IMG/VR virus record: IMGVR_UViG_2740892449_000004
Origin: a virus
Lineage: Duplodnaviria; Heunggongvirae; Uroviricota; Caudoviricetes
Reading direction: 5' to 3' (one strand)
Length of the DNA stretch: 64,000 bases
Within the stretch, counting starts at the first letter, position 1. Each line of letters starts with the position of its first letter. Under the pieces are notes generated by a model. It ran no database searches and was not told the DNA's origin. It saw only the letters and a program-made list of their open reading frames with translations. The position numbers and the translations under genes were made by a program. Positions 2,183-58,734 of the stretch are shown one piece after another.

Positions 2183-2771
2183 GTATGCAACGGTCGATTT
2201 TGACCAGGTTAATGAAAAGGGGCTGAAATCCCTTATCGCGGCGATCAATAAAACCGGTGTTACGGTAATTGAGGTTGACTCCAGCAACCGCGCAACAACG
2301 AAAGATGGCGTTAAAGTTAAAACCGCAAAGCTGGTTCTTAACGACGGACAAATTCTTGCCATACAGGTAAACGATACTGGCGATATATCGTCTGTGAGGC
2401 TGAATGGAAAAGCTATTCCTAACGCTCAATCGCCGGATATCAAGACGCTTGGTACCGTCATGGGGCAAGCGGCCCGCAAAAACTCCGCAAAATTCCAGAA
2501 ATCACTGATCGCCAAAGCGAAACGTGTTGCCAATCCGGTAGACAAGAAACCGGCAGTAAAATCCAACTTTCAGCGCCTGCAAGAGGCAAAACAGCGGAAT
2601 GCTCAGGTGGTTGCCGCTTATAAATCAGCGCAGAACTCGGTGTCTTTCAATCAACAGCAGATCACTGATTTGCGGGCGAAGCTGGATAAGGAGACAGGCC
2701 GACTCAATAACGAAAAGGCCCGAAATGGCGAACTCAAACGCCGTCTTAAGCAACTGAAAGCAGGAAATTAA
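2169..2771 (+). CDS. darA-operon protein with C-terminal coiled coil (possibly Hdf, by position only)
   Basis: ORF track 2160..2771; ATG at 2169 after AGGA; Lys/Ala-rich coiled-coil C-terminus; directly upstream of darA-like gene. Confidence 0.55.
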   Translation: MTKNKYATVDFDQVNEKGLKSLIAAINKTGVTVIEVDSSNRATTKDGVKVKTAKLVLNDGQILAIQVNDTGDISSVRLNGKAIPNAQSPDIKTLGTVMGQAARKNSAKFQKSLIAKAKRVANPVDKKPAVKSNFQRLQEAKQRNAQVVAAYKSAQNSVSFNQQQITDLRAKLDKETGRLNNEKARNGELKRRLKQLKAGN

Positions 2772-2772
2772 C

Positions 2773-4662
2773 ATGGAACAGTTCAATATCAATAAAGGGG
2801 TGACGATCAAGCCTGGGCTTGACGTGCTTCCCCCGCCAGTGACTGATGATGAATATCGCGCATTAATGGCCGGTGAGGACCGCTATCTGATGACGGAATC
2901 CAACACCCTGGAGGAAATCGAGGCTACGTTCTTCTATGACACGCCGATCCACTGGTGTGCTACGGATTTACTGGAGGCGATTAGTTCTACTCGTTTGCAG
3001 TTACACCGGACCATGCAGGCATTTGTCCGGGCATTGAACCAGAAGCTGAATGGTACCGGAATCTCTGCGGGGAGTGATAAAACGGGGGATGTGGCCCAGA
3101 GCGGCGCGCGCGCGATCGGCGGCGCTGAAATTGGCCGGGCACGTAACGTTAACGGGCTGCCGGTCTTGCCAGCCATTATTCCGCTCAGTGATGGTCAGAC
3201 TATCAGCATTCTGTTTCATAGCCCGACAGCGGAAAACCGGATCACCAATAGCGATACGCTGGTTGCTTTCCAGTTCTTACTGAATAAAAAAGACGTTACT
3301 CACACCGTTGCTCCGATGAGTGGACGTGATATGACGCTGGCGCAGGTCACCATGAAACTTGCCAACCTTGCAGAGAAAAACTCGGCAAAATTCCAGCGTG
3401 CGCAGAAGAAGAAAAAAGCCCTTGTTGATGAAATAACCCAACTACAGGCTGACAGTGACCAGAAAGAGGATGCCATGAGCGACCTCGCGGATCAGGTGGC
3501 AGCGGTAGAAGGGCAGAAGGCAGATCTGGAGCAGAAAATTAACGCTGTTGCATCGGAAGCGGATTCTCTTTATGAAGAGAATGAGCGTTTGCAGACGGAG
3601 ATTGATCAGCTCAATCGCACTGGTGGGCGCGGTACCATTGCTCCAGCGGGGATGACTGGTGGGCACTCTCGCGCGCTGACGGATCGCCTTGCCAGTATCA
3701 AAAATCGTATGCATATGGACGGGGAAGTGACGCTCAGTAATGGTGCATCAATGAAGCAATTCATTGGGGGCGGCGAAGGGTATATCCAGTTAACCGATCC
3801 GGATGGCAGCGTATACATGATCAAGGCTAAATCCATACAGGGTGTGGACATGGCAGATGCGATCGGCAAGCTGTTTAAAGCCTATAAAGCGGGTAATGTA
3901 TCGGAATACCTGGTCCAACCAGAAGAACATAAACCGGAAAACGTCGAACCTGAACCAGCGGAGGATACCGGTAGCTCTTCGCCTGAACCAGAAGTCTCTG
4001 TAGGTGCATATCGATATGCCCTGCAAATGCGTCCGGCGGCCCCTGGCGCAATACCTGAAGGTAACAAAGCAATTCTGCCGCGCCCTGATGAAGGTGACCC
4101 GTATTATGAATATGCACGCTACGGCATTGCTACTTACGATACCCCGCTTTCTGATCAGCAAATGAGTGAGTACGACCTGAAGTTATTGCCTCGCGAGGAT
4201 TCTTTCGACTTCCTGGCGAAGACACTTACTAATGGTCCGTTTGGCAAATATGCACAAAAAGCTCTGGAGCTGGCCACCAGCTCACCAGACGAGTTCCGCG
4301 TAATGCTGAAAACTCAGTTTCAAAAAACTTTCCCCAATATTGCGTTTCCTGGGGGCGCTGGCACCGAGAAAATGGTGCAGAGCATGATCAATGCATTGCA
4401 GGCCGAAGTCGGTGAGATTACTCAGCCAGAACCGGCCCCGGCACAGCCTGATGAAACGGTTAGCGAAGCAGATGCAGAGGCTAATAAAGCCATTGAATAT
4501 CTCAATAACGTGATGGATATACAAAGCACTGACATGGCGGAGATCCGTAACGCCCGGGGCAATGTCCGGGAAGCGATTGCAGCCTTCAGGCTGCCGGACG
4601 TTTTGAGGAAAACGAAGAGCTGGTTAACGGCGCAGCTCGCCACCTGGCTGATCTGTTGGTAG
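2773..4662 (+). CDS. darA: DarA-like internal head / antirestriction protein precursor
   Basis: 629-aa ORF, start overlaps upstream stop (TAACATGG); central coiled coil; identity inferred from synteny (lydA-lydB-...-darA, darB elsewhere in window), not from a motif. Confidence 0.55.
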   Translation: MEQFNINKGVTIKPGLDVLPPPVTDDEYRALMAGEDRYLMTESNTLEEIEATFFYDTPIHWCATDLLEAISSTRLQLHRTMQAFVRALNQKLNGTGISAGSDKTGDVAQSGARAIGGAEIGRARNVNGLPVLPAIIPLSDGQTISILFHSPTAENRITNSDTLVAFQFLLNKKDVTHTVAPMSGRDMTLAQVTMKLANLAEKNSAKFQRAQKKKKALVDEITQLQADSDQKEDAMSDLADQVAAVEGQKADLEQKINAVASEADSLYEENERLQTEIDQLNRTGGRGTIAPAGMTGGHSRALTDRLASIKNRMHMDGEVTLSNGASMKQFIGGGEGYIQLTDPDGSVYMIKAKSIQGVDMADAIGKLFKAYKAGNVSEYLVQPEEHKPENVEPEPAEDTGSSSPEPEVSVGAYRYALQMRPAAPGAIPEGNKAILPRPDEGDPYYEYARYGIATYDTPLSDQQMSEYDLKLLPREDSFDFLAKTLTNGPFGKYAQKALELATSSPDEFRVMLKTQFQKTFPNIAFPGGAGTEKMVQSMINALQAEVGEITQPEPAPAQPDETVSEADAEANKAIEYLNNVMDIQSTDMAEIRNARGNVREAIAAFRLPDVLRKTKSWLTAQLATWLICW

Positions 4663-4687
4663 CAATCCAGAAAGCGGGGGTAGCGGC

Positions 4688-5053
4688 ATGACACTATCAG
4701 CTATTGAGTTAATGGATCTCAGCGATAAGTTGGATGCTCTGATGTCCAAAGCGGCTACCGCGAGTGGCATGGAGTTGCTGGATATCAGCGATGAAATTGA
4801 CCAGATCATGCAACAGATGGGGTACGGTGTGTCCGGCGGCAGTAGTGGCGAGGAAAAACAACCTTCGGTACATGATGGTGTGCCAAAACTGGTTGCTGAT
4901 TTCCTGGCTGATAAATTCGTCGATCAGAGCACCGATGCATTTATCGGTACCTTGCAGGATTTGAGTCAATATGTTGGCACATACATCGACCTGGACCAGG
5001 TTAAACAGCACACGGCGGCATGGATAGCCGCCAACATTAAAGAGGCAGCATAA
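4688..5053 (+). CDS. Small acidic darA-operon protein (DdrA-like by position)
   Basis: ORF track 121 aa; acidic composition; operon context. Confidence 0.5.
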   Translation: MTLSAIELMDLSDKLDALMSKAATASGMELLDISDEIDQIMQQMGYGVSGGSSGEEKQPSVHDGVPKLVADFLADKFVDQSTDAFIGTLQDLSQYVGTYIDLDQVKQHTAAWIAANIKEAA

Positions 5054-5065
5054 GGCGTAACAGGG

Positions 5066-8052
5066 ATGAGCTTAAGCGATCAGGTGGTAATGGCCACCAG
5101 CATAGAAACGCTGATCGAGCTGCTAAAGAACCTGCCCGATTATGGGCGGGTTTCGTATGTGGTGACAGCGAAGGGAGACGAGGTAAAAACAGCGTTTGAT
5201 ATCGTCGATGCCTCAGCTCTTTTGGTATCCAATACTCTGGATGGGAAAATTAATCCTGACTATCCCCAGGAACTTCAGCCGCGCGACCGGACCCGCGCAT
5301 CCAGCCTTCTTCAGGTTAACCAGATATCCAAAGATTTGCGGCCAGCTCAGCTTACTGATTCCGGTTTATCCAGCCATGGTGCGCCGATAATTGGTGAGGA
5401 CAATGCCGTTGAGTCAGGTAATGGACGGACCATGGGGATCATCAAAGCCTATCAGGACGGCAATGCGGATCGGTATCGTGAGTACCTGATTGAACATGCG
5501 ACCGAATTCGGAATACGACCTGAAAAGGTTGAATCAATGACGCTCCGGTACTGGTGCGCCGCCGGTTAACGAAGGTTGACCGTGTTCAGTTTGCCAAGGA
5601 CTCAAATATTTCTGATCTCCAGGAAATGGCAGCCAGTGAAAAGGCTTTTGTTGATGCCGACAGCATAACTCCGGCGATGATGGCGCTGTTTAACCCATCA
5701 GAAAGCGGAGATCTGCTTAGCCGCAGTAATGACGCGTTTATTCGCGGATTCATGACGCAAGTTGGTGCCACACAGGCTGCTGGCCTTGTAACGGAAGATG
5801 GGCGACCAACACGGCAACTTGTTGACCGTATACAAAACGCGATCTTTGCCAAGGCATATAAGGATGCGCGCCTGGTAAGAATGGTTGCAGAAGAACCTGA
5901 TCCGGATATGCGTAATGTTCTGACGGCGCTTAATGCGGCAGCCAATGATTTTGTCCAGATGCAGGCTTTATCAGGAGAAGCGCACAAGCAGGCTGTGACA
6001 ACTATTGTTGATGGTATTGAGACAGCGGATAGTCTCGATAAAAAGGCGCTGGCGGCATTGAAAGATGCGGTAGACCTGGTAAGGCAATCGAAGGAGTCAG
6101 GCCAACATATTACCGATGTTATTGCTCAGGGGGATATGTTCAGCGAAACAGCCCCGGAAGTGAAAGCTCTCGCGTTGTTCATCGTCGCGAATAACCGTAG
6201 CGCGAAGCGTATGGCCACCGCCTTTAAATTGATGGCTCAACGTATCAATGATGAGTTACAGCACCAGGGCCAGGCGCTGGGGGATATGTTTGGCGGTGGT
6301 GATGTGTCGTTACAGGATATCCTTCGCCAGGTGTCTCAGGAACTGGAAAACGAAGGCATGCAAGGGATATCCGGCGGTCTTTTCGAGTCCGTTTCCGGCG
6401 GTAGTTACAACGGTGTTGCTCCATATACCAGTTTGCTATTACATCGGGCATCCGGCATCAAAGACATTATTCATCTGATCAGGCTGCTTTCCCGTACAGA
6501 TCCCCAGGATGAACAGCTTGTACAAGTGCTTGCGCATTTTGTTCGAATGCCTGTTGCCGACGTGAATAAATGGTGCCGATTATTCGGTATCAGCAATTCG
6601 TTACTTCGCGGATTGTTAAATCACGCATCCTCCCTTGGGCGCGACGGCTTTGATGAGATAGCGCAGGCGATAAAAAACGGAGATATGCCACCAGCTATTG
6701 ACTGGTTTTCCATTCGCCCAACCAGGGTGAAAGCATTCCTTAGCGCGGCGCATTCGGCATCACCATTGGCAGAAATGGTTCAGAGGTTGTCGCTCATATT
6801 CACAGACCATACCGCGTTGGGTGATCTGACTCTGGACGAGATGAAAGAAGCCTCCATTCAGTGGGCCGATCAACAAAATGAGGTTAACTCAGACTTCTTG
6901 CCAGCATTCAGGAAGGCCGTTAGTAAAGCGGATGATGCCCGTGGAATTCTGAAGGCGTTTAAGGCATTGCAAAGTCGTGTTAATAAACATGTCGGTGATA
7001 TCGATGGGGTAACGGCGGAAGGCCGGGATATCCTTAAAGAGCACGGCATAACGCCAGAGTTTATTGATGAGATCAGGACTGATATGCAGCGTGAGGTCGT
7101 ATCGTCCCTGCAAATCGTAGCCAGAGCGTTGGCGGATGCTAATCCGAAGAGTGCGGCCATTGTTAACCGGGTTATTGGTGATATTGAAGCATCGGAGGGC
7201 ATGGGGGCGCTGAAACTCTTCCTTTCGCGAGCGTTTAATCCTAACGGCAATATTCTCCCTGGCATTATTGGTGAGGCTAAAAAGTATGTCAGTGAAGAAG
7301 AACTTGAGCAGCTTGACCAACTACTTAAGCGATTCTCATATAACCCGCAGACACGCTGGCAAATGAATCAGCGAAGTATGGGTTCGGTCCACGAGAAAGT
7401 GTTATCTGCCATGAACAGTGCGATCGCAAACTCATCCGTATCTGAAGAAAAAGCTCTTGAGTGGGCCGACTCTTTTATCACAGAAGAAGTGGAAGAAGCC
7501 CGCGCTGGACAGAATGGTGGGATAGACCTGCGCAAGGAACTTGCTGATATTTATCGCCTGACCGGCGGGAAAATATCGACCTTATCAAAGGTAGTTCACC
7601 ACCAGGGAAGGGCATATGCAAATCTTAATGGTGTTGTTGCTGTCAATTTGAACGATGAAAATGCAAGTGCACTGTGGCACGAGCTGGGTCATCATCTTGA
7701 GTACAGTAACCCTGGTTTGTTAGAGAAAGCCCGGTCATTCCTGAAGGCCAATGTTGAAGGGGATAAGCCATCTTTCGTCAATATCGGTGGGCGTGGCAAG
7801 CCTGAATGGTGCTTCAGATCTCGATTGAGTAATATTTATATGGCGAAGGTATACCCGCCAGCCTCAGTAAGTAACACCGGGAAAATTCGGCAGAAATCAC
7901 CGACTATTTCCAAAACGTCAGCAACGGAAGTATTCTCTATGGCTCTTCAGTTGTATCATGACAAAGAGGCCGCTGCCGCATCACTGATGAATGGTGACGG
8001 ATTGCTGGAACTGTTATTAGGTGTGGCAAAGGAGCTAAATAATGCAGATTAA
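5066..8052 (+). CDS. Large darA-operon protein (DdrB-like by position), reading frame broken once
   Basis: ORF track gives 5066..5569 and 5554..8052 in different frames overlapping 16 nt; combined span 2987 nt = 3n+2, so one added base restores a single ~995-codon ORF. Confidence 0.6.
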
Positions 8053-9474: not shown

Positions 9475-10255
9475 TTTCCACCTCTTCCGTGGTGTTTTCT
9501 TGCAGTTCTGTTAATGCAGCACGACATAGGTTCCGGGCATTGGCTATAGCCACACTTTTGACTTCATCCGTCATCGTGCAGGTAATGTACTGATCGAGTT
9601 CTTCAGCGCGGATGATGCTTTTGCCAATCAGAAACTGTATTTGCCATAGCAGATCGGCATCCATAATCAGAATTTCTGCCGGGCCTTCAGGGCCAGCCGG
9701 GAAGGAAACATAAGACTGTTTGCCCAGGCCGACAACTCGACAACTTGCTTCAAGAATTGCGCGCTTGAGGTCTGACTTTATAACGGAAACAGGTTGATTT
9801 TCACCAGTGATTACGCCGTTGACATGGAAAGGCATGTAGCTTGAAATACGCTCCACTTTCCACACGCCAGCAAGCGATCCTTCATGCAGCACAATGGGGG
9901 TAACCGCGAGTTTCATCTCACCATATAACTGCTGGCAGATAGCTGGATTGCTGAATACATCTAAAGGCTCACATTCAAACAGCGGCGCAATCTGCATGAG
10001 GTCCATCATGGTCATCCCTGGGGTACGAGCAGTAATGAATTTGCGCATACCAGTATCCATTGCGCTCCAGATTGCTACACCATGCTTTTTGCTCACTTCT
10101 TCAGTAAAGCCAAGGTGGCACATGATGGTTTTTTCGATAGCCAGATCGGAGATAGAAACCTTTTCGCCAGGTACACCATCATTATTGATGGTCACTTCGA
10201 CACTCTGGCCATTACGCAGGCGGTATTGAATTGTTTTAGTATTTTGTGCTGCCAT
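9467..10255 (-). CDS. Hypothetical protein (possibly isaA-like by position)
   Basis: ORF track 9467..10375; preferred start is the internal ATG at 10255 (MAAQNTK) after a purine-rich stretch; no family recognised. Confidence 0.5.
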   Translation of the reverse strand: MAAQNTKTIQYRLRNGQSVEVTINNDGVPGEKVSISDLAIEKTIMCHLGFTEEVSKKHGVAIWSAMDTGMRKFITARTPGMTMMDLMQIAPLFECEPLDVFSNPAICQQLYGEMKLAVTPIVLHEGSLAGVWKVERISSYMPFHVNGVITGENQPVSVIKSDLKRAILEASCRVVGLGKQSYVSFPAGPEGPAEILIMDADLLWQIQFLIGKSIIRAEELDQYITCTMTDEVKSVAIANARNLCRAALTELQENTTEEVESD

Positions 10256-14761: not shown

Positions 14762-17700
14762 ATGAACAAGCTATCTATGGGGGTGTTTCGCTGTTCAAGT
14801 GTCAGCGAAATATTGAAATACATTAGGGCAATAACATCTCACCGAGCGCCGATTAGATACGGCGTGGAAAAGGTGGAAGGCAAAAGCTATGACCGACTGC
14901 GCCGGGAGGCGAATCAGAAGGCGATAGATTTGCTTAATTCACTGGTGGACGGCGCGACACTGACAGATGAACAGCGCCAGATCCTGGCTGGGTACACCGG
15001 TGAAGGCGGCATTGGCGGGTCCGTCTCCGAATATTACACACCAAAGCCGATCGCTGAAGGTGTCTGGGAGATCATGAAGCTCTACGGCGCGGACGTAGGT
15101 AACACTCTGGAACCATCGGCGGGAACCGGCGTTTTTAATGAGACAAAACCGGTTGGTACGGTGATGACCGCGACTGAGATCAGCAGTGTTTCCGGTCGTA
15201 TAAACCAGCTGTTACACCCGGAAGACAGCGTACAGATTTCCCCGTTCGAACAACTGGCTGTAAGCACGCCTAACGATTCATTCGACCATGTTGTGGGTAA
15301 CGTTCCGTTCGGCGGTCGTGATAACACACGCAACATCGATAAGCCTTACGCAGAAGAAACGGACATGGGTTCTTACTTCATGCTCCGCATGCTGGACAAG
15401 ATAAAGCCAGGCGGATTCATGTGCGTGATTGTGCCGCCGTCCATTGTTTCAGGTTCAAACATGAAGCGGTTACGCCTGCGCCTATCCCGTAAAGCTGAAT
15501 TTCTTGGTGCCCACCGCTTGCCTACCGGTACTTTTGACGCAAACGGGACCAGTACAGTCGTTGATGTGGTGCTGATGCGCAAACATCCGGCAGAGATGGC
15601 TGAGAAAATCCCCCTGGTGGATGAAAGCACTCTTGAATCGGCAAATGTGCTTTGGCCAACGTTTATTTCTGGCAAGTGGTTTGAAAAGGATGGCCGCCGG
15701 TTTGTTCATGGCACCCAGGAAAAGGGCTTCCAGGGGCGTATTGAGGTTCGTGCCGACGGTCAGATTGATAACCAGGCTCTTAAAGCGAAGCTGATTCATC
15801 GTTTCGAAAGCCGTATCGACTGGTCTTTGCTCGATATGGCTGAACCGTCACCGACCGCAGACGTTGTTGATGAAGGGGAAATGCGCCTGATTAATGGCGT
15901 ATGGCAAAAATATGCTGGTGGTCGCTGGATTGAAGCTGATGCCGGGAAGGAACTTAAAATTGATGCTGCCAGTTATGGCGCGGATAGCTGGGAGGCTCTT
16001 CAGCGTAACCTGACTACAACAGAAGGCCGTCTCGGTATGACATTTACCCAGATGGCAAATGTCCGCGATAAGTACACCACATCAATCAGCGACGATATGG
16101 TGCAGCTGGTGGACTGGATTAACAGCCAGCCTGAAAAATACCGTGAACGCTTGTATCGTGGGGCGATGATTGGCCGGATGTTAATTGAATATCAGGATAT
16201 GAAGGCCGCCGGGCATAGTGCTGAACAAATCGAACAGCAGCGCCTTTCTCTGGTATCCCGTTTGCAGGCAGAGATTGACCGTTTTGGTAACCCTGGTCGC
16301 GGTCCGATAGCTAAATTATCGGGAAGCGGTGCGCGCGCCTGGTTTGCTTTCCGTGGTGCAATTAAGCTGGATGGCACTATTTCTGACGAGCTGACAGGAA
16401 AGCTGGTTACGCATGATTCCAGCGCCAGTTATGACTCCACCAGCTATCAGGACACCCTGCGTTATCTCTATAGCGATCTTACCCGCGATCCAATCCAGCT
16501 CGATGATTTCCGCCTTGCGTTTACCGGCGAATTGCCAGCCAGTGATGAAGAGTTGCTTAATTTATTGGCCAGCACTCCTGGTATTGCGGTTTCACCGTAT
16601 GGCGGGATTGTTCCGTTCGCCCGCGCCACCAGCGGCGACATTAACGAGATAGTGGCTCCAAAACAGGAATTCCTCGCCACGCTCCCCGACGGTCCAGTAA
16701 AGAACAACGTCCTTAATCAGCTGGCAGCGATCGAAGAGAAGCGCATCAAGACGCCAGCAGAGAATATCCGCTTTAAGCTCAATAGCCGTTGGTTCGACCG
16801 TTCCGTCATTCTGGAGTTTTTGCAGGAAAACGGCTATCCGGATCTGCGCTATGTGCAGTCAGTGCAGCTGGAAGGCGACGAAATGGTTTCTGACACCTAT
16901 CACGGTGGTGATGGCCTGTTCGTCGGGCACCGATACGGTGTCGTCCAGCGCAAGGATAAAGAAACAGGCGAGATCCGCTACGAGTGGGACCGTAAATCAG
17001 GTGAAAACGCGACCGGGTTCCCGGCACAGCTGGAAAAGTATCTCAATGGTGCGCGTATCGGTGGCAAAGATAGCGCGACGGCGAACGGCTACCGCGAGCA
17101 GATGGCACTGCTTGAGGACCAGTTCAATAAGTGGATCAAGACGCACGATCGCTACGATGAGCTGGTTGCCAAATACAACGATGTGTTCAATAGCAATATC
17201 CCGTATGAACACTCTGGCGATCCGCTTGGGTTGAAGGGATTAAGCGGTAAGCGACAGCCATTTGATTACCAGAATAGCGAGGTGCGCCGACTGTCCGAAG
17301 ATGGGCGCGGCATCCTGGGCTTCGGTACCGGGCTGGGTAAAACCACGACCGCGCTGGCGCTTGAGGCGTTCAACTATGAGAACGGTCGTTCCACCCGTAC
17401 TGCGTATGTAGTGCCTAAATCAGTGCTGGAAAACTGGTATTACGAAGCAAAAGAGTTCCTGAGTGAAGAGGCATTCAGTAACTACCTGTTCGTCGGTCTT
17501 GATGTGCTGATGGATGGCGATCAGATTCGCCAGGTGCCGGTGCTCAATGAGAACGGTAAACCTGTTCTTGGTACTGATGGCACTCCAGTTATGCGCGATG
17601 CTCTTAAGCTGGCAGATGAAGCCACTATCACGGCGCGGATGAACGCGATCCCGCACTCAAATTACCGTGCAGTCGTGTTTACCAAAGAACAATACGCCCG

Positions 17701-20700
17701 CATTCCGCTACGTGATGACACCGTAGATGAGCATGCACAGGATATGCTTTATGACTTCGTTGCCGCCGGGCGCGTAGCCAGCGCAATGGATTCCGATTCC
17801 CATCGCAAAGAGGCGGCGCGTCGCCGGGTATTGTCGGAGTATTCAGATACCGGTACCGAAAAAGCAGAGAAGTATCCGTACTTTGAGGATATGGGCTTCG
17901 ACAGCGTGATCGCCGACGAAGGCCACAACTACCGCAATAGCTATAAAAATGGTCGCGAAGCGTCACAACTGGCCTATCTGCCACCAGCGCGGTGGCGCAA
18001 TCGGCGCGGGATATGGCAATCAAAAACGCGTACCTGATGAAAAAGAATGGCGGGCGCGGGCCGGTTCTCCTGACTGCAACGCCAGTCGTTAACACCCCGA
18101 TCGATGCATACAACATGCTTTCTCATGTTCTGCCGAAGGAATACTGGCAGAAAATGGGGATCTACGGTCCTGATGACTTCGTTAAATTCTTCGGCAAGAC
18201 CAGGCTGGAAACGGTACAGAAAATCAGCGGTGAAGTTGAAGAAAAAATGGCGCTGGTGGGCTTTGAAAACCTTGATGCGCTGCGCGGCATATTCCATCGC
18301 TGGACAACGCTTAAAACGGCGGAAGACGTTAAGGATACCGTGGAGATCCCGGAACTGGACGAACACCAGCAGGATGCACCACTTACGGAAGAACAACTGG
18401 CGGCGTATGAAGAATTGCGTCAGCAGGCGGAAGCGGCAGCCAAAGCCAACAATGGCGTAACGACCTCGGTCAATGAAGACGGCGTGATTGAGCACGAGAA
18501 AGCCCGTCCGATCTTCTCAATAATCAGGGATATGGACCGCGTATGTACTGACATGGACCTGTACTATCGCAGGATCACCTATCGTTTCCTGCCGGAGTAC
18601 GCCGATGCGGTGCAGCAGCTGGCGGACAGTTTGCCTAAACAAGCCACCAGCGAAGACGACGACAGTGATGATTCGATCACGCAGCAATCGCAATACTCCC
18701 TGATAGATAAGGGCGAGTTTATTCAGTTGCAGGTACCGGAAGCATTTGAGCAGGAAGTGAATAAGCGCCTGGCCAAGTTTGGCATTGACGAACAGACCGT
18801 AACTCACCCCGTTACGCCCAAATACGCGAAGCTGATTGCCACGCTGAAGGAGTTTTTCCCGGAAGGTAAGCAAATCATCTTCACCGATGAAAAAACGCAA
18901 CACCAGAAGCTCAAGCGCATTATCTGCAATGCTCTTAACCTTGAACCTTCAAAGGTGGGGATCCTGAATGCTCAGACGGTTGCCGAGGCAGGTAAAACCG
19001 GTAAGAAACTGAAAGCGGTTAAACCGCCGAAAGAGCTACCGGATGAACCAACAGATGCACAGATAGCGAAATACAACGAGCAAATGGCTCTGTATGACGC
19101 CTATATCGCGCAGCAAAATGAAATGTCGCTGGGTGGGCTGGAAAAGATTGCTGCCGACTTCCAGGAGGGCCGGACTCCGATCATCATCTGCAACAAAAAG
19201 GCAGAGGTGGGTATCAACCTGCATCGAGGAACGACTGACATCCATCATCTGACGTTGCCATGGACACCAGCCAGTATCGCACAGCGTAACGGTCGCGGTG
19301 CCCGAGTTGGTTCCAACCGTGCAAGCGTTCGCGTTCACTACTACTGCGGCAAGGGTTCTTTCGATGAATACCGACTGAAGACGCTGAAGCGTAAAGCAGG
19401 CTGGATCTCCGATATCCTCCGCTCAGATAAGTCTGAAATGGAGAACGCCGACGCCAACGATATGATCGAAATGCAGATGTATACCGCTAAGGATGATGGC
19501 GAACGTCTGGCAATGATGCAGGTTCAAATGGATAAGGCGAAAGCCGCGCAACGCGCTCGCCAGAAAGAACAGGCTACTATCGACCTTCAGAACTACATCA
19601 AGGCGCAGCACGCAGCTGGCGAGGATGTGGAGGTACTTACCGCTGAATTAGAGCGAAGCAAAGCGGAACTTGAAAAGACCACCGCCGAGGTAGCTAAATT
19701 CAAACAGGCGGTAATGGCCAAAGCAGCTGATAACGCAGACTGGAAGGCCCGCTGGGGGAGCGTCCATCACACAGACCGTATGTTGTTAGCACAGTATCGC
19801 GCGTCGTTGAAAAACGCCATTCAGCGCAAGGCTAATATCTCTCAAGCCATCTCCCGCTATGAGAAATTATTGAACCGTACTCAGAAGGCCGCGACGGATA
19901 TCAAACGCCTGCGCCCGCTGGTGGAGGATGCAATAAATAAAGGCATTCTGGATGTTGATCCTGACCTGGTTAACCATGCGAGTGAGTTCCTTGTTATCGG
20001 CGATCGCTCATGGCGTGTAGGCCAATACTACGATTGTGCCGGTGATATCGTTCGCATTAAGTCGCTGGACTTCGACAGCCAGCGCGCAGACGTGGAGATC
20101 ATCTTTACCTTCAAAGGCACCAAATCGGGTAACTGGGATGTGAAGACGCTGGATAAACAGGTGGATGTAACTCCCGATGAAGATGCTGTTATGCAGAAAA
20201 TCAGTGGTGGCGTCTCCATCGCCGGGATTAACGACATCATTTCCTGTGACGATTTCTACCGTTTCCAGCAGCGCGGCATGATCAAAATAACTGACTCGTA
20301 CGGCGTTCAGACTACAGAGTCAGGCTATAGCATTGATTTTGTTGGTACCTATACGGACCCACTGAAGCATGCGGTTTACCCGGATCGCCGTGACGGCGCG
20401 CTGAAGTCGTCAATTGCAAAATGGGTGCTTGGTATGATGTCGGAAGGGAATAACCGCCAGATCCGTTCGGCAGAAACATTCCTGGTTGAATTGTTTGGCT
20501 CCAATTATGGCGATGTAATCGCGTCATACGGAGATACGCTATCCCCTGAAGCAATTCAGGAGAAAATAGCGGATGCGATCGCCAGAATGCCGGAAAAAAC
20601 AAGCCAGGGGGCTACTCGTAACGGGGATTCTGAACTTGAAGTCACCAATGCCATTTTCGGTACCAATGAGTTCCGGGCGTCAGATTATGAGATCACCACA

Positions 20701-21528
20701 GCACAGTTTGGCACCATTGGCATTTACAGCAATAAAGCCGAGATCAAGCAGGCAATGGACGCAGCAAGCGCGCGCATCGCAGCAGAACGGGAAGCCAATC
20801 TGAATCATGCAGTCGCCGCGCTGACTCAATCGTGGGTAACAGCAATCAGGGAGGCCGCCACCACAGGGAAAATCACACCTGCAATAGCGGATGTCGTAAA
20901 CGACGGCTCTAAATTTATGGATGCCTATCAAATGGATGCGGTGAAGTTGCCATCAGCCTATGGTCAACTCAGCTATCGCATGACCTACAACCTGGTATCA
21001 ATGTTTTCCGACCTTGCCATCCTTGGGCTGGTGGATCTTAACGAGGTTACGCCGGAATTGCTCAGCATGCGCAAGAATCATGTGGAGATATTGCAGAGAA
21101 TTAACACGGTTCTTGCCGGGCGCACCGATGAAGAGAAACAGGCCGACGCTGATCGGATAAACCTAGCCCTTGGCAACATCACGGAGGAAGAGATTGCCGC
21201 CAGAAACGAGAAACAAGAAGAGTTATCATCAATACAGGGTGATGCCACCAGCATAGCTCAGTCTCTTGGTCTGAATTATCGCGTATCCACCGCCGACCTG
21301 AAGATGATGTACGCACCAAAATTCGCCGCTGGCGAGGTATTTGGGCTTCAGGAAGCCTCAGGCATGAAAGGCGTTCTTTTCCGTGCGAAAGACGCAATCA
21401 AGGCGAAATTCGGCGCTCGCTGGCTGCCAGCGAAGGCGAAGAACAGCGATTTCCCGGGTAACTGGTGGATTATCGAGACAAAACACAACGTGGCGGACGT
21501 TCTGGCCGTCATCCAACAATACGCATAA
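14762..21528 (+). CDS. darB: DarB-like antirestriction protein (N6-adenine methyltransferase-like domain + DExH helicase), frame broken once
   Basis: Track ORFs 14762..18037 and 17992..21528; motifs VGNVPFGG, GFGTGLGKTTT (helicase motif I), ADEGHNYRN (DEGH), QRNGRGARVGS (motif VI); span 6767 nt = 3n+2, one added base gives 2255 codons. Confidence 0.85.
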
Positions 21529-21561
21529 CAGGAGCGCCCGGTTCGCCGGGCGTCGCATAAT

Positions 21562-22002
21562 ATGGCCACACTATCTGATACAATAAAACCGAATAAAACA
21601 TATCTTGAGGCGGTACTGCGTACGGCATTGTTAGGAAAGACAGAAGACGAATACGTTGATTTCTTCCTGTCAGGGCTACGCGGGCGATTACTGAAAAATC
21701 CCCGCCTGTACCGCAGCTATGGCCCATACTGGCCGGAAATTAAAAAATTATTACTGGAGCGCGGTTATGGTAATTTCGGTCGTCTCGTTGACCGTGACGT
21801 TCGCAAAATTTACCGTTATGACCGCCCGGCGCTAACACTCATAGCCGCGACGCTCTACAGCCAGGAGCGTTTTGATAATGGTCAGATATACTCAGCCTGG
21901 CATTTACTGCCAGTGCCTGAAGAAGTTGACGACCAGGACTATGAGTTTGAGTCTTACGATTTGGAAGTTGAAGCCTTGGCACAGGCTGGAGAGAAAACTT
22001 GA
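21562..22002 (+). CDS. Ulx-like protein (by position downstream of darB)
   Basis: ORF track 146 aa; 33 nt after darB stop; stop overlaps next start. Confidence 0.5.
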   Translation: MATLSDTIKPNKTYLEAVLRTALLGKTEDEYVDFFLSGLRGRLLKNPRLYRSYGPYWPEIKKLLLERGYGNFGRLVDRDVRKIYRYDRPALTLIAATLYSQERFDNGQIYSAWHLLPVPEEVDDQDYEFESYDLEVEALAQAGEKT

Positions 22003-22247
22003 AAAAGCGATACTACACAGTAAAGCATGGGACGCTACGAGCATTACAAGAGTTTGCTGATAAGCATAACGTTGAGGTGCGCAGGGAAGGGGGAAGTAAA
22101 GCTCTGCGCATGTACCGTCCGGACGGGAAATGGCGTACGGTCGTCGATTTCAAAACTAACAGCGTTCCCCAGGGCGTCCGCGACCGGGCATTCGAAGAAT
22201 GGGAGCAGATCATCATAGATAACGCATTGCTCCTGAATGCTGATTAA
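21999..22247 (+). CDS. Lxc/Bof-like C1 corepressor (by size and position)
   Basis: ORF track 82 aa; ATGA-type overlap with upstream gene; basic small protein. Confidence 0.45.
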   Translation: MKKRYYTVKHGTLRALQEFADKHNVEVRREGGSKALRMYRPDGKWRTVVDFKTNSVPQGVRDRAFEEWEQIIIDNALLLNAD

Positions 22248-22255
22248 ATCTTTGG

Positions 22256-22280
22256 CTATGCCTGGCTAAGCCAGGCATAG
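22256..22280. terminator. Hairpin between convergent lxc-like gene and RelA/SpoT gene
   Basis: Perfect 11-bp stem CTATGCCTGGC-TAA-GCCAGGCATAG between stops at 22247 and 22285; flanking T-runs weak. Confidence 0.45.
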
Positions 22281-22284
22281 GAAT

Positions 22285-23424
22285 TTACACAGTATCAATG
22301 TGTCTGCTAAGGAATCTCCCGAACTGATTTGTTGACCCAAAATAGTTAGGATAAGCCTTTTTAAGAGATTTAATGTTGTTAGTGGCAAGCAGCACCGCAA
22401 TTAATACTTCAGGATCCGCATCATCCTTATTAAGTTCCTGGAGGGCTTGTTCCGATTCTTTTTTCCTAAAAGGTTTCACAGAAACAAGAAACTTTCCAGT
22501 ATCCTTGCCATTTTTTGTTATGGCGTTTCTCATCCTCACCAAAAAGAATCCATTATGGTTTTTGGGCAGGCTTTTCTTTAGGTTTGCATCTGATGTCAGC
22601 TTCATTGCAAATGTATATGTACTTAATTTTGAGCGAACAGATAAAGCCTCCTCCAATGTTTTAAGCTCTGTTTGATAATTTTTGATGGTTTCATCATCAA
22701 GAATACAGGCACCTTCATCATGAGCAACTAGGCATCCAGAAAGATAAAAAAATCTTCTCCACTCAGGGTGACCTTCATTAGAAGTTTTCAGCTTAATATT
22801 TTCAAGTGTATCTATTATCTCCAGACTTGTTGCCCAAGCATGTTGGAGTTCTGTTCTTAGTTGTACTTCGATTTTAGTTTTACTCCACGGATTGTTACCG
22901 TTTTCTTCATCAAAACAACTATATGCAAGGTGAATGCCACTATATCCGCTTGGCTTTGGAGTTAAATAGTCATATTCCTTTAAGATTTTATGCTTGGAGC
23001 GACTTTTAACTAGTCGGTCTTTTAGTTTCTTTAGTTGTTCGATGTTTCTAACTATAGCTCTACATCCGCCAATATCCTGCATTCTAGTAAGGGCTATTGC
23101 ATTATTTGTTGCGCCGCCGTCAAGACTTGGACGCTCCAGTTTATCAATTATTGTGCTAAGTCTTTTTAGGCGTCTTGCAACAATAATCTTATTCTCTTTA
23201 TCAACTTTTTTTGCAGCCCTATCAAGATGATTTTTCATTAGCATCAATGGATATAAATGAAGCTCGCGGAAATTTTGAATCATTTTAATTGCTTCTTCTC
23301 GCTCTGCGCCCTCACAACCATGTCTAATTTTTCTGGCTGCTTTTTCTATTTGAGATTTCGAATATTTAAGTTCGCATTTTTGGCTTTGATATACTTCACT
23401 GCCCATTACTAACATCCAGTTCAA
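22285..23424 (-). CDS. RelA/SpoT-domain nucleotidyltransferase (toxSAS) fused to a C-terminal domain; CapRel-like candidate
   Basis: Motifs RLKRLSTIIDKL, DIGGCRAIV, SGYSGIHLAY, EVQLRTELQHAWATSLE; visibly AT-rich; TTG at 23424 or ATG at 23415/23406 as start. Confidence 0.8.
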   Translation of the reverse strand: MNWMLVMGSEVYQSQKCELKYSKSQIEKAARKIRHGCEGAEREEAIKMIQNFRELHLYPLMLMKNHLDRAAKKVDKENKIIVARRLKRLSTIIDKLERPSLDGGATNNAIALTRMQDIGGCRAIVRNIEQLKKLKDRLVKSRSKHKILKEYDYLTPKPSGYSGIHLAYSCFDEENGNNPWSKTKIEVQLRTELQHAWATSLEIIDTLENIKLKTSNEGHPEWRRFFYLSGCLVAHDEGACILDDETIKNYQTELKTLEEALSVRSKLSTYTFAMKLTSDANLKKSLPKNHNGFFLVRMRNAITKNGKDTGKFLVSVKPFRKKESEQALQELNKDDADPEVLIAVLLATNNIKSLKKAYPNYFGSTNQFGRFLSRHIDTV

Positions 23425-23518
23425 ATGATTAATGTGTTGTTACATATAATAACAAATCAAGCTAGAAATCAATGGGTATGAAAATGAAACATACCCATAA
23501 TGTTACCTAACGTAACTA

Positions 23519-24160
23519 TTATAAATAGTTCTGTTTACCTGTTAATTCTCCTTGCGGCACTTGTTTTTGCGTTAGTGTTTGAGTTCCGCGAATTATGTTA
23601 ATCAGGGGACTTAGTAATGATGGTTCCTGATGGGCCTCAACTTCTCCAGCCATTGCCCTGATGTAGTCGGCGCTGGCAACGTTGTTGTATTCCGTCGCAA
23701 AGCAACATAGTAACGTCAGAACATGTTCTGTCGTTATTTCGCTCCAGTTGATGTTGAAAAATTCATCGCCTTTTTTATCGTGTTCGGAATCGAAGATGCT
23801 TTGGTGAAGGATGTATTTGCCGGATTCCTTGCGCGGTAACTTGATCGCTTTCTGGCGTTCCAATTCCTTGTAAATCTGCATTGCTTCAATCAGTACCGGT
23901 CTGCCGTTCATGAAGGGATCACGCAACCTTACACGCTGGCCAACTCGACCGGTAATAAAGCTGTTTTCCTCTTCCACCAGCACGATAAAACCCTTTTCCT
24001 CTTTTTCTCGCAATTCGCGCAGCAGCTGGAGTTCCATATCGCGGCGGCGTTCAGGGTAGCTGGTCCGCTCAGCCATTATCAGCTCATTGTTGATCCATGC
24101 AGCAGTCATTGACGCCGGTTTGCCGACGCTCATTGAAACAACGCATATTTTCTTATCCAT
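23519..24160 (-). CDS. Hypothetical protein, Mat-like by position
   Basis: ORF track 23519..24187 (GTG); preferred ATG at 24160 after AGGGG; between ref and the cargo gene. Confidence 0.5.
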   Translation of the reverse strand: MDKKICVVSMSVGKPASMTAAWINNELIMAERTSYPERRRDMELQLLRELREKEEKGFIVLVEEENSFITGRVGQRVRLRDPFMNGRPVLIEAMQIYKELERQKAIKLPRKESGKYILHQSIFDSEHDKKGDEFFNINWSEITTEHVLTLLCCFATEYNNVASADYIRAMAGEVEAHQEPSLLSPLINIIRGTQTLTQKQVPQGELTGKQNYL

Positions 24161-24348
24161 AGCGCCCCTACAAAAAAGAAAAGCCACCAGCGGCGGCTTA
24201 GCAATACAACTGAAGGTAGCGCCCGGTACTCAGACTGTGCCGTCCATGGAATATTTGAAAAGGGATCCATCCGTACCGGGCGTGTGATGATTCTGACTCA
24301 AGTCACTTGTCAGTTGTCAATCATTTAAGATTAAAAATAATATATTTA

Positions 24349-24908
24349 TTAGTGCATGATGTTTGCCATTTCATAGGCGTCAGCCAGCAACTCCATCTCT
24401 GACTTGTTCAACAAGGTGAATTCTTTCTTGCCTCCTACCACGCCATCTGCATGAACAGGGACCAGCCAAGGGTATTTTTCTCTTACTTCAGCCGGTGCTG
24501 CATGCTGGTGGTGCCATCTGCAAAGGGGCAATTGCTTTTTGTGACAACCCGGCGCGGTACGACCGGAGATATGGTGCAGAGACACCTCTTCAGATATTAC
24601 TCCATGCATGTAGCAGGCAATGCAGGGGAGAGTGCCAAGAGCATTGGCGATGCGCCGTTCCTCCGCCGTTGGTGTTCTCCCTTCAAGCCACGAGATTTTA
24701 TTTTTACCGCGCTTTTCCGCGTTTTGCTGGCTGGTGGGCGCTCTTTCTGTTTAGCGATACGGCGGTCGATAGTATCCCGCATTATCTGATATTGAGATTC
24801 TCGCCAGACCGGATCAGCCAACTTCTCCCGTTGCCGAGCGATCGCTCGTTCTCTGGCTGCCTTCTGCCACTCGCGGCGCTGTTCAAGTTTTTGTTCGATT
24901 GTTTTCAT
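24349..24908 (-). CDS. ref: Ref-like HNH endonuclease, frame broken once
   Basis: Track ORFs 24597..24908 (basic N-terminus MKTIEQKLEQ) and 24349..24609 (Cys/His HNH-like SLHHISGRTAPGCHKK...CRWHH); span 560 nt = 3n+2. Confidence 0.65.
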
Positions 24909-25001: not shown

Positions 25002-25025
25002 ATTATAGCAATCAATTAGAGCAAT
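25002..25025 (-). promoter_or_regulatory. Putative ref promoter with overlapping C1 operator
   Basis: Minus strand shows ATTGCTCTAATTGAT directly followed by extended -10 TGCTATAAT; operator 17-mer at 25009..25025. Confidence 0.5.
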
Positions 25026-25517: not shown

Positions 25518-26549
25518 CTAATCGCCATCTTCCAGCAGGCGCACCATTGCCCCTGTTTCACTATCCAGGTTACGGATATAGTTCATGACAATATTTACGT
25601 TGGTCCAGCCACCAGCTTGCATGATCTCCGGTATTGAAACTCCGGCGCGGGCCATATCTCGCGCGGCTCCGACACGGGCACTGTGTCCAGACCAGGCCAG
25701 GTACCTCTGACCAGAGTCATCCTTAGCCCCGTAAATCAATCGGTGAGTTGCTTCAAAAATCCCTTCCAGGGCGCGAGTTGATAGCTGGCTGGTGGATGAT
25801 GGCGAGGCAACACCATTTTTTCTGACCCGGCAAAACAAGTAGTTATTCGGATCATCAGCCACACCAGAGACGGAAATCCATCGCTCGACCAGTTTAGTTA
25901 CCCCCAGGCTAAGTGCCTTCTCTACACCTGCGGTGCTAACCAGCGTTTTCGTTCTGCCAATATGGATTAACATTCTCCCACCGTCAGTACGTGAGATATC
26001 TTTAACCCTGATCCTGGCAATTTCGGCTATACGTAACAGGGTGTTATAAGCAATCCCCAGAAATGCCAGATTCCGTATATCCTGGCAGCGATCGCTATTT
26101 CCCATGAGTGAACGAACCTGGTCGAAATCAGTGCGTTCGAACGCCAGCGCCTGTTTTGCACGCTCACCGGCATCAACGTTTTCTTTTCGGATCCGTCGCA
26201 TGACCAGTGAAACAGCATTGCTGTCACTTGGTCGTGGCAGCCCGGACCGACGATGAAGCATATTTAGCTGGCCCAAATGTTGCTGGATAGTTTTCACTGC
26301 CAGACCGCGCGCCTGAAGATATAGAAGATAATCGCGAACATCTTCAGGTTCTGCGGGAAACCATTTCCGGTTATTCAACTTGCACCATGCCGCCCATGAC
26401 CGGCAAACGGACAGAAGCATTTTCCAGGTATGCTCAGAAAACGCCTGGCGATCCCTGAACATGTCCATCAGGTTCTTGCGAACCTCATCACTCGTTGCAT
26501 CGACCGGTAATGCAGGCAAATTTTGGTGTACGGTCAGTAAATTGGACAT
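25518..26549 (-). CDS. cre: Cre site-specific tyrosine recombinase
   Basis: 343 aa starting MSNLLTVHQNLPALPVDATSDEVRKNLMDMFRDRQAFSEHTWKMLLSVCRSWAAWCKL, ending LEDGD; recognised as Cre. Confidence 0.97.
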   Translation of the reverse strand: MSNLLTVHQNLPALPVDATSDEVRKNLMDMFRDRQAFSEHTWKMLLSVCRSWAAWCKLNNRKWFPAEPEDVRDYLLYLQARGLAVKTIQQHLGQLNMLHRRSGLPRPSDSNAVSLVMRRIRKENVDAGERAKQALAFERTDFDQVRSLMGNSDRCQDIRNLAFLGIAYNTLLRIAEIARIRVKDISRTDGGRMLIHIGRTKTLVSTAGVEKALSLGVTKLVERWISVSGVADDPNNYLFCRVRKNGVASPSSTSQLSTRALEGIFEATHRLIYGAKDDSGQRYLAWSGHSARVGAARDMARAGVSIPEIMQAGGWTNVNIVMNYIRNLDSETGAMVRLLEDGD

Positions 26550-26967
26550 TTAACACTCAGATAATGGTTTTAAGTAAAGTGTACAGGATCGGCTCTGCCT
26601 TTACCTGTTTATGGTTCTCGTCATAGAAACGCCAGCGACCGCGCGTGCGTTCTATTTTCTCTTCACCGCGCGATAATGACAGTTGACAACTATCACGATC
26701 AAACCCTTTTGCCCGCCAGTAACCACGGTTTTTCTCAAGCTCAATATGAGTGGACACTTTAGCAGCTGAATATCCCATTTTTCACCTCTGATTGATTGGT
26801 GGTGCTAAGTGCGCTACGCGAAATCTGGAGCACTAACACTGCCAACATTTCGCAGATTTTACGTAGCGCAACCTTGATCAAATGATCAAGTGATCACTAT
26901 TTGACCTGATAAGGTATTGAACTGTATGGATTTACAGGTAAATTGATCATGTTCAATAACCCTTAAG

Positions 26968-27121: not shown

Positions 27122-27150
27122 TTGACAATTGCTCTAATAAATTATAGTTT
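27122..27150 (+). promoter_or_regulatory. C1-repressed promoter with operator, directed toward coi-c1
   Basis: TTGACA at 27122-27127 directly followed by operator ATTGCTCTAATAAATTA (27128..27144, 16/17) and a weak -10. Confidence 0.6.
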
Positions 27151-42522: not shown

Positions 42523-42539
42523 AGATTTATTAGAGCAAT
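42523..42539. promoter_or_regulatory. C1 operator-like 17-mer
   Basis: AGATTTATTAGAGCAAT, 16/17; overlaps the stop of the 42539..43045 gene. Confidence 0.55.
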
Positions 42540-58717: not shown

Positions 58718-58734
58718 AAATTTATTAGAGCAAT
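58718..58734. promoter_or_regulatory. C1 operator, perfect match
   Basis: AAATTTATTAGAGCAAT, 17/17 to operator reverse complement; overlaps dmt stop, upstream of the tRNA cluster. Confidence 0.7.

Follow-up and report, generated by a model that had tools for sequence, protein, structure and literature searches.

Phages P1 and P7 keep the genes of their type III restriction-modification systems, res and mod, between mat and lxc, and the locus described here raises the question of what a related element carries at that position, where the exchanged segment begins and ends, and how it may have got there. The DNA is a 64,000-nucleotide stretch of a Caudoviricetes virus (IMG/VR record IMGVR_UViG_2740892449_000004; the whole stretch is referred to as the window). 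It is a P1-like phage-plasmid, in which an 8-kb query taken round the island between lxc and mat matches P1, P7, RCS47, JL22, SJ46, and others at 94 to 99.5% identity. The comparisons reported below support the answer that where P1 and P7 have type III res-mod, this element has a cargo of another kind, a single gene, namely capRel, which encodes the fused toxin-antitoxin CapRelSJ46. It is very probable, in our judgment, that the lxc-mat interval is the known RD-1 cargo slot carrying a CapRelSJ46 cassette in place of an EcoP1I-type res-mod pair, that the cassette acts through the published CapRel mechanism, and that recombination in its flanks is the probable route of exchange.

Cargo of the lxc-mat slot

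The original prediction for this locus, made by a model from the letters of the window, had placed a res-mod pair between mat and lxc in P1, and the reference genome agrees: in NC_005856, mat lies at 2716-3468, res at 3544-6456, mod::IS5 extends up to ~9.7 kb, and lxc lies at 9750-9998, with the identical order mat, res, mod, lxc in P7. The spacing of ~1.2 kb given for the window was also right, as 1,271 bp were measured between the two stop codons, and no res-mod pair had been overlooked: tblastn of the whole 64-kb window with P1 Res, P7 Res, and P7 Mod gave a best E value of 0.95, and blastn with the entire P1 res-mod interval gave zero matches. Alignment to P1 and other P1-like elements showed that canonical P1 has no capRel in the slot and allowed the exchange boundaries to be mapped. 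The mat and lxc flanks are 94 to 99% identical to P1 (ulx and lxc together match P1 9749-10597 at 98.5% nucleotide identity by blastn), and the slot sits in a P1-type backbone. As predicted, the genes run darB, ulx, lxc, toxSAS gene, mat, ref; beyond that point the predicted order had omitted c8 and inverted cre and cra, the real order being ref, c8, cre, cra (Table 1).

The toxSAS gene guessed to lie in the slot proved to encode CapRelSJ46, a fused toxSAS. Its product is 100% identical over residues 1 to 373 to chain A of PDB entry 7ZTB, CapRelSJ46 of Salmonella phage SJ46 (E = 1.4e-250), and also matches PDB entry 9ERV from residue 2. Pfam RelA_SpoT (PF04607) is found at residues 79 to 193 (E = 3e-13; 50.5 bits against a cutoff of 27), PADLOC model PDC-S33 matches at E = 7e-87, and the more distant PDB matches are the small alarmone synthetases RelQ, RelP, and YwaC. 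Because the identity to the crystallised protein is full length, the residues highlighted for CapRelSJ46 are present in the translation: the G-loop tyrosine Y155 and the ATP-coordinating R79 and R116, which are key active-site residues, Y155A being the catalytic mutant used as the inactive control (PMC9712102). The architecture is an N-terminal toxSYNTH (RelA/SpoT) toxin and a C-terminal pseudo-zinc-finger antitoxin and sensor in a single polypeptide; no other plausible gene accompanies capRel in the 1,271-bp island, and there is no separate antitoxin gene. Judged by its sequence, the island cargo is the CapRelSJ46 allele, a member of the CapRel fused toxSAS toxin-antitoxins.

How this protein acts has been worked out in detail. 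The C-terminal pseudo-zinc-finger domain (pseudo-ZFD) of the fused toxin-antitoxin autoinhibits the N-terminal toxSYNTH domain; when the major capsid protein of phage SECphi27 binds the pseudo-ZFD, the freed enzyme pyrophosphorylates tRNAs, translation is blocked, and the infection is abortive (PMC9712102). Another trigger is Gp54 of Bas11, described in 2024 (PMC11578894). When CapRelSJ46 is split, the N-terminal part is toxic, and supplying the C-terminal part in trans relieves the toxicity (PMC9712102). We infer that CapRel would work alike from the present element. In an uninfected lysogen, the pseudo-ZFD would be folded onto toxSYNTH with the ATP site blocked; upon infection by a susceptible phage, a newly made phage protein (a SECphi27-like major capsid protein or Bas11 Gp54) would bind the pseudo-ZFD, the enzyme would open, and tRNA pyrophosphorylation would stop translation and abort the infection, which would shield the clonal population and the resident phage-plasmid.

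Salmonella phage SJ46 itself (Zhang et al., Nature 2022, 2024) has the identical 373-aa (amino acid) protein, with its gene in the same place, and the island and its flanks are 99.7% identical to SJ46 at the nucleotide level over window positions 21400-24389. The two elements differ beyond mat, which in SJ46 is directly followed by Tn1721, whereas the window runs on to ref, c8, cre, and cra as P1 does; the capRel gene itself is no different. The EcoP1I and EcoP7 res-mod systems of P1 and P7 are like the cassette in using the mat-lxc slot, in defending the lysogen against incoming phage DNA, and in being low-GC recent acquisitions. They are unlike it in comprising two genes, ~4.9 kb, that cleave DNA, whereas CapRel is one 1.1-kb gene that senses a phage protein and halts translation; the genes are unrelated, with no sequence similarity.

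Boundaries, composition, and expression signals of the island

Window positions 21400-24700 were used as a blastn query against P1 and 12 other loci with different cargoes. On the left, homology to P1, P7, and 10 other P1-like loci is lost at 22243-22269, the lxc stop codon being at 22245-22247, and the junction sequences diverge from the first base past this codon in every cargo type. On the right, homology is regained at 23507-23534, the mat stop codon being at 23519-23521; in the carriers of DUF2971 and EAL cargoes it is regained only at 23637 and 23651. The extent originally proposed for the island, 21528-24349, was too wide and also takes in ulx, lxc, and mat, while the true island occupies 22248-23518. 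Its GC content of 0.366 compares with a window mean of 0.486 (standard deviation, 0.028) and is the lowest of any stretch of such size in the 64 kb; the trough is ~4 standard deviations deep, and only 0.24% of equal-sized windows are equally low, each of them overlapping the island. GC skew across 22.2 to 23.6 kb had also been suggested as an island marker and turned out to be uninformative: the sign changes at ~22.2-22.4 kb, and because this coincides with the switch in coding strand (lxc on the plus strand, capRel and its neighbours on the minus strand), we read the change as strand-related. GC content, not skew, marks the island.

The mat gene, too, varies with the cargo at its 3' end. Across 12 elements, Mat hardly changes over its first ~160 residues and the last ~50 differ by cargo type, the 3' tail of the window's mat being closer to the empty-slot and SIR2 versions than to that of P1. 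This variation likely reflects hitch-hiking with recombination tracts; a functional link to the cargo is possible. The annotated P1 Mat, at 250 aa, has a 37-residue N-terminal extension (P1 2716-2826) that is in no other annotation. At window positions 24160-24271 the P1-style start is not open, the longest open reading frame (ORF) coding for 222 aa, and the 213-aa Mat beginning MDKKICVV is probably the real protein.

Several candidate expression signals surround capRel (Table 1). The perfect inverted repeat between the convergent lxc and capRel stop codons folds at -21.5 kcal/mol on the plus strand and -23.3 kcal/mol on the minus strand (z-scores, -3.5 and -4.3) and lacks a clean T-run; it may act as a two-way terminator. 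Just past the lxc stop, the empty slot and most of the other cargoes examined have GC-rich hairpins that differ from this one; none is evident for P1. The hairpin between mat and capRel (-18.7 kcal/mol; z-score, -4.7 on the minus strand) may terminate mat transcription and insulate capRel. As the promoter scan was not enriched over shuffled sequence (6 sites found versus 5.3 expected), nor the terminator scan, all of these signals are candidates.

When up to 3 mismatches are allowed, the P1 C1 operator consensus ATTGCTCTAATAAATTT is matched at 15 sites in the window, where 0.2 would be expected; they include 58718-58734, 27128-27144, and 42523-42539, and this is consistent with an intact P1-type immunity network. 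None of these 15 sites lies in the island, the nearest being at 25009-25025, and control of capRel by C1 immunity was considered and dropped for want of an operator there. Because no C1 operator lies within the island, lysogens probably express capRel without control by C1.

Table 1. Features of the window around the lxc-mat slot, and contents of the slot in P1-like elements (positions with an L number refer to loci of other elements)
Feature	Position	Strand	Remarks
Variable island (published as RD-1 or variable region 1)	22248-23518		1,271 bp; GC 0.366; one gene and its own signals
darB	14762-21528	+	Upstream of ulx
ulx (Ulx-like anti-restriction gene)	21562-22002	+	Conserved backbone left of the slot, outside the island; P1 annotation
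lxc (modulator of C1 repressor)	21999-22247	+	Left flank; stop codon is left island boundary
Perfect 12-bp inverted repeat, CTATGCCTGGCT / AGCCAGGCATAG	22256-22280		Between convergent lxc and capRel stops; candidate two-way terminator, part of cassette
capRel	22285-23406	-	373 aa; only plausible gene in island
Hairpin GGGTATG...CATACCC	23472-23498	-	Just downstream of mat stop, upstream of capRel
Promoter-like site TTAACA, 16 nt, TATAAT	23518-23545	-	11/12 matches; overlaps mat stop, points toward capRel
mat (maturation control)	23519-24160	-	213 aa; right flank; stop codon is right island boundary
ref	24349-24908	-	After mat
c8		-	Between ref and cre
cre	25518-26549	-	After c8
cra	26557-26778	-	After cre
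Slot cargo: CapRel, window type			
Slot cargo: second CapRel allele	L011:2385-3512		74% amino-acid identity to the window's
Slot cargo: SIR2 protein			Matches PADLOC PDC-S25 and ThsA-like models
Slot cargo: DUF2971			PADLOC PDC-S31
Slot cargo: PIN			Weak PADLOC PDC-S34 match
Slot cargo: GNAT acetyltransferase	L006:2431-3039		No PADLOC match
Slot cargo: EAL-domain protein and unannotated 170-aa ORF	L009:2349-4032		No PADLOC match
Slot cargo: YaaC-family protein and 169-aa partner	L005:2407-3956		No PADLOC match
Slot cargo: res-mod			P1, P7
Slot empty			39 bp between stops; RCS47, CP088789

Two backbone genes near the island are frameshifted in the window. At ~24681, a G run in ref has lost 1 nt (GGG in the window against GGGG in P1), which breaks the gene into two ORFs, 103 aa and 86 aa long, that overlap; the result may be either a real pseudogene or a homopolymer sequencing error. 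In darB (2,255 aa in P1), a 1-nt deletion has shortened a C run at ~17981 (CC in the window against CCC in P1) and leaves two ORFs, one of 1,091 aa and one of 1,178 aa, and because this is the second homopolymer frameshift in the window, assembly error is suspected.

Other cargoes of the slot and the spread of CapRel

That the slot is variable was known before. Venturini et al. (2019) named the region RD-1 and reported three elements in which res-mod is absent and something else takes its place, at loci of low GC content; in pTZ20_1P the substitute is a "putative phosphokinase" (PMC6906374). In a survey of 54 P1-like elements published in 2022 (Microbiol Spectr), res-mod is treated as variable region 1 (PMC9603915), and the variability is shown again in Fig. 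5 of an mBio paper of 2024 (PMC10865808). These accounts share with ours the mat and lxc flanks, the low GC content, and the variable content, but they do not map the breakpoints to the two stop codons and do not mention the cargo-linked C-terminal tail of mat or the cassette-specific hairpins. According to a 2025 preprint, P1-like phage-plasmids defend themselves mainly by CapRel, type III restriction-modification, dGTPase, and PrrC (10.1101/2025.09.12.675607).

The flanks match 711 plasmids, and cargo types were taken from a systematic sample of 60 of these records together with fetched examples. At least nine alternative cargoes were found, plus empty sites (Table 1). The island of the window is 100% identical in 5 of the listed plasmids and at least 99% identical in 22 plasmids, and of 5,426 complete E. 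coli genomes, 14 have an island of this type, in each case on a plasmid. The second CapRel allele is found in 52 plasmids, bringing those with a CapRel allele to 74 in total; most of the P7-type res-mod cassette is found in ~65. Among flank-matching plasmids, res-mod is a minority state, and "P1's slot" is therefore really a general cargo slot.

The second allele bears on an independently described gene. In pTZ20_1P (NZ_MN510447.1, 3501-4657), which is said to carry relAP1, the slot holds this second allele, with 74% amino-acid and ~70% nucleotide identity to the window's capRel. Going by pTZ20_1P rather than by the M114 sequence, relAP1 of the P1-like element of E. coli M114 (mBio 2024) is probably this allele and not that of SJ46; both are RelA/SpoT genes in the mat-lxc slot. 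Residue I179, the site of the compensatory I179S change in the relAP1 paper, is conserved in both CapRel alleles. That paper describes relAP1, a CapRel homologue, as making blaTEM-116* costly and proposes an effect of ppGpp; it never mentions CapRel, toxSAS, or capsid sensing (PMC10865808).

The YaaC pair, the GNAT acetyltransferase, and the EAL cargo are, by their location, candidate uncharacterised defence genes. The 169-aa partner of the YaaC-family protein is weakly similar to nucleoside 2-deoxyribosyltransferases, with an E value of 1.8e-4 that falls below the Pfam cutoff. The neighbouring mat-ref gap is a second insertion point, holding a DUF4145 gene in pPSJ-14_2 (L010:4304-5053), Tn3 in P7, within the 3' end of ref (L013:2619-7568), and Tn1721 adjoining mat in SJ46 (L001:9410-13378). 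In the defence hotspots of P2/P4 prophages and satellites, which Rousset and coworkers reportedly described in 2022, unrelated small defence systems are likewise said to interchange at a fixed intergenic position in the backbone. The backbone there is another one; the genes that flank the lxc-mat slot are convergent, and its cargo usually comprises one or two genes.

Origin and function of the cassette

Homologous recombination in the conserved flanks is the probable means by which the cassette passes from one P1-like element to another, and the end points may sometimes fall within the 3' end of mat; this would explain why the breakpoints lie at both stop codons, why the 3' tail of mat is linked to the cargo, and why target duplications and mobility genes are missing. 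The alternative is that a mobile element brought the island in, or that it was integrated site-specifically, the lxc-mat site having been empty beforehand, and there is something to be said for it, in that empty sites do occur, the low GC content of the island indicates foreign origin, and Cre/lox and Ref lie within 3.5 kb. Against it, a search of the island boundaries for flanking direct or inverted repeats and target duplications gave nothing convincing: there are no long direct repeats and no terminal inverted repeats, the sole boundary-proximal direct repeat (13 nt, 85% match) has its second copy within capRel, and the island contains no transposase or integrase. The different cargoes, moreover, have no end sequences in common, and the divergence grades into the 3' end of mat to an extent that varies by cargo, which fits variable end points of homologous recombination. 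We therefore consider insertion or integration unlikely.

The gene could also serve something other than defence. Its RelA_SpoT synthetase domain, database names such as "(p)ppGpp synthetase" and "GTP pyrophosphokinase," and the raised basal ppGpp suggested for the homologous relAP1 in the same slot (PMC10865808) would suit a small synthetase of the alarmone (p)ppGpp that tunes host physiology (stringent response, persistence, prophage induction) rather than sensing phages. The relAP1 study, however, contains no ppGpp measurements and makes no reference to the CapRel work, and the protein identical to the present one has been shown to pyrophosphorylate tRNAs, to block translation, and to give protection from phages, Y155A serving as the inactive control (PMC9712102); this leaves the alarmone function very improbable. 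Still less probable is a plasmid-addiction system that would stabilise the phage-plasmid by post-segregational killing, as a toxin-antitoxin on a low-copy plasmid prophage might, given that the N-terminal fragment alone is toxic and the C-terminal fragment rescues in trans (PMC9712102). Here, toxin and antitoxin form one polypeptide, from which differential decay after plasmid loss would presumably be unable to free the toxin, and the slot may be empty or carry cargo other than toxin-antitoxins. P1-like elements already carry phd-doc for addiction, which also counts against this role.

Defence by an exchanged CapRelSJ46 cassette is thus the reading that we prefer, and four points weigh against it. 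Protection by CapRelSJ46 has been demonstrated with the gene cloned on a low-copy plasmid or present once in the MG1655 chromosome, and thus outside its native P1-like context (PMC9712102). Expression of capRel from the present element is presumed, its one strong promoter-like site being a match to the consensus, and homologous recombination as the route of exchange is deduced from the positions of the breakpoints. Finally, the slot had been predicted to be "swapped," and its cargo does differ from the res-mod of P1 and P7, but replacement of res-mod in particular is not demonstrable: res-mod is only one of at least nine cargoes, empty slots exist, and the mat tail of the window is nearer to the empty-slot and SIR2 forms than to that of P1. 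CapRel may have displaced res-mod or a different cargo, or may have entered a slot that was empty.

The literature already covers both the cargo and the variable slot, and the cargo of the window is fully characterised. As a discovery the locus matters little, since this bacterial immunity protein has been well studied, capRel being its type specimen, and the variability of the slot is on record in three papers. The additions made here are small, namely, the breakpoints at the stop codons, the cargo-linked mat tail and hairpins, the two CapRel alleles sharing one slot, and the link between relAP1 and CapRel, which the relAP1 paper did not make. What novelty is left lies in the uncharacterised cargoes that other elements carry in the slot and not in the window itself. 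Tentatively, and with rather more doubt than conviction, one may go further and suppose that the lxc-mat slot is a dedicated single-cassette anti-phage hotspot, that its uncharacterised sister cargoes are new defence systems, and that the cost of blaTEM-116* in the presence of relAP1 reflects leaky triggering of CapRel by a nonphage protein. If this were true, the new systems would be the YaaC-family protein with its 169-aa partner, the GNAT acetyltransferase, the EAL protein, and, in the adjacent mat-ref gap, DUF4145. For P1-like phage-plasmids as a group, the locus means that defence systems are swapped at one precise position between two stop codons, and looking at this slot elsewhere could be an inexpensive way to find candidate defence genes.

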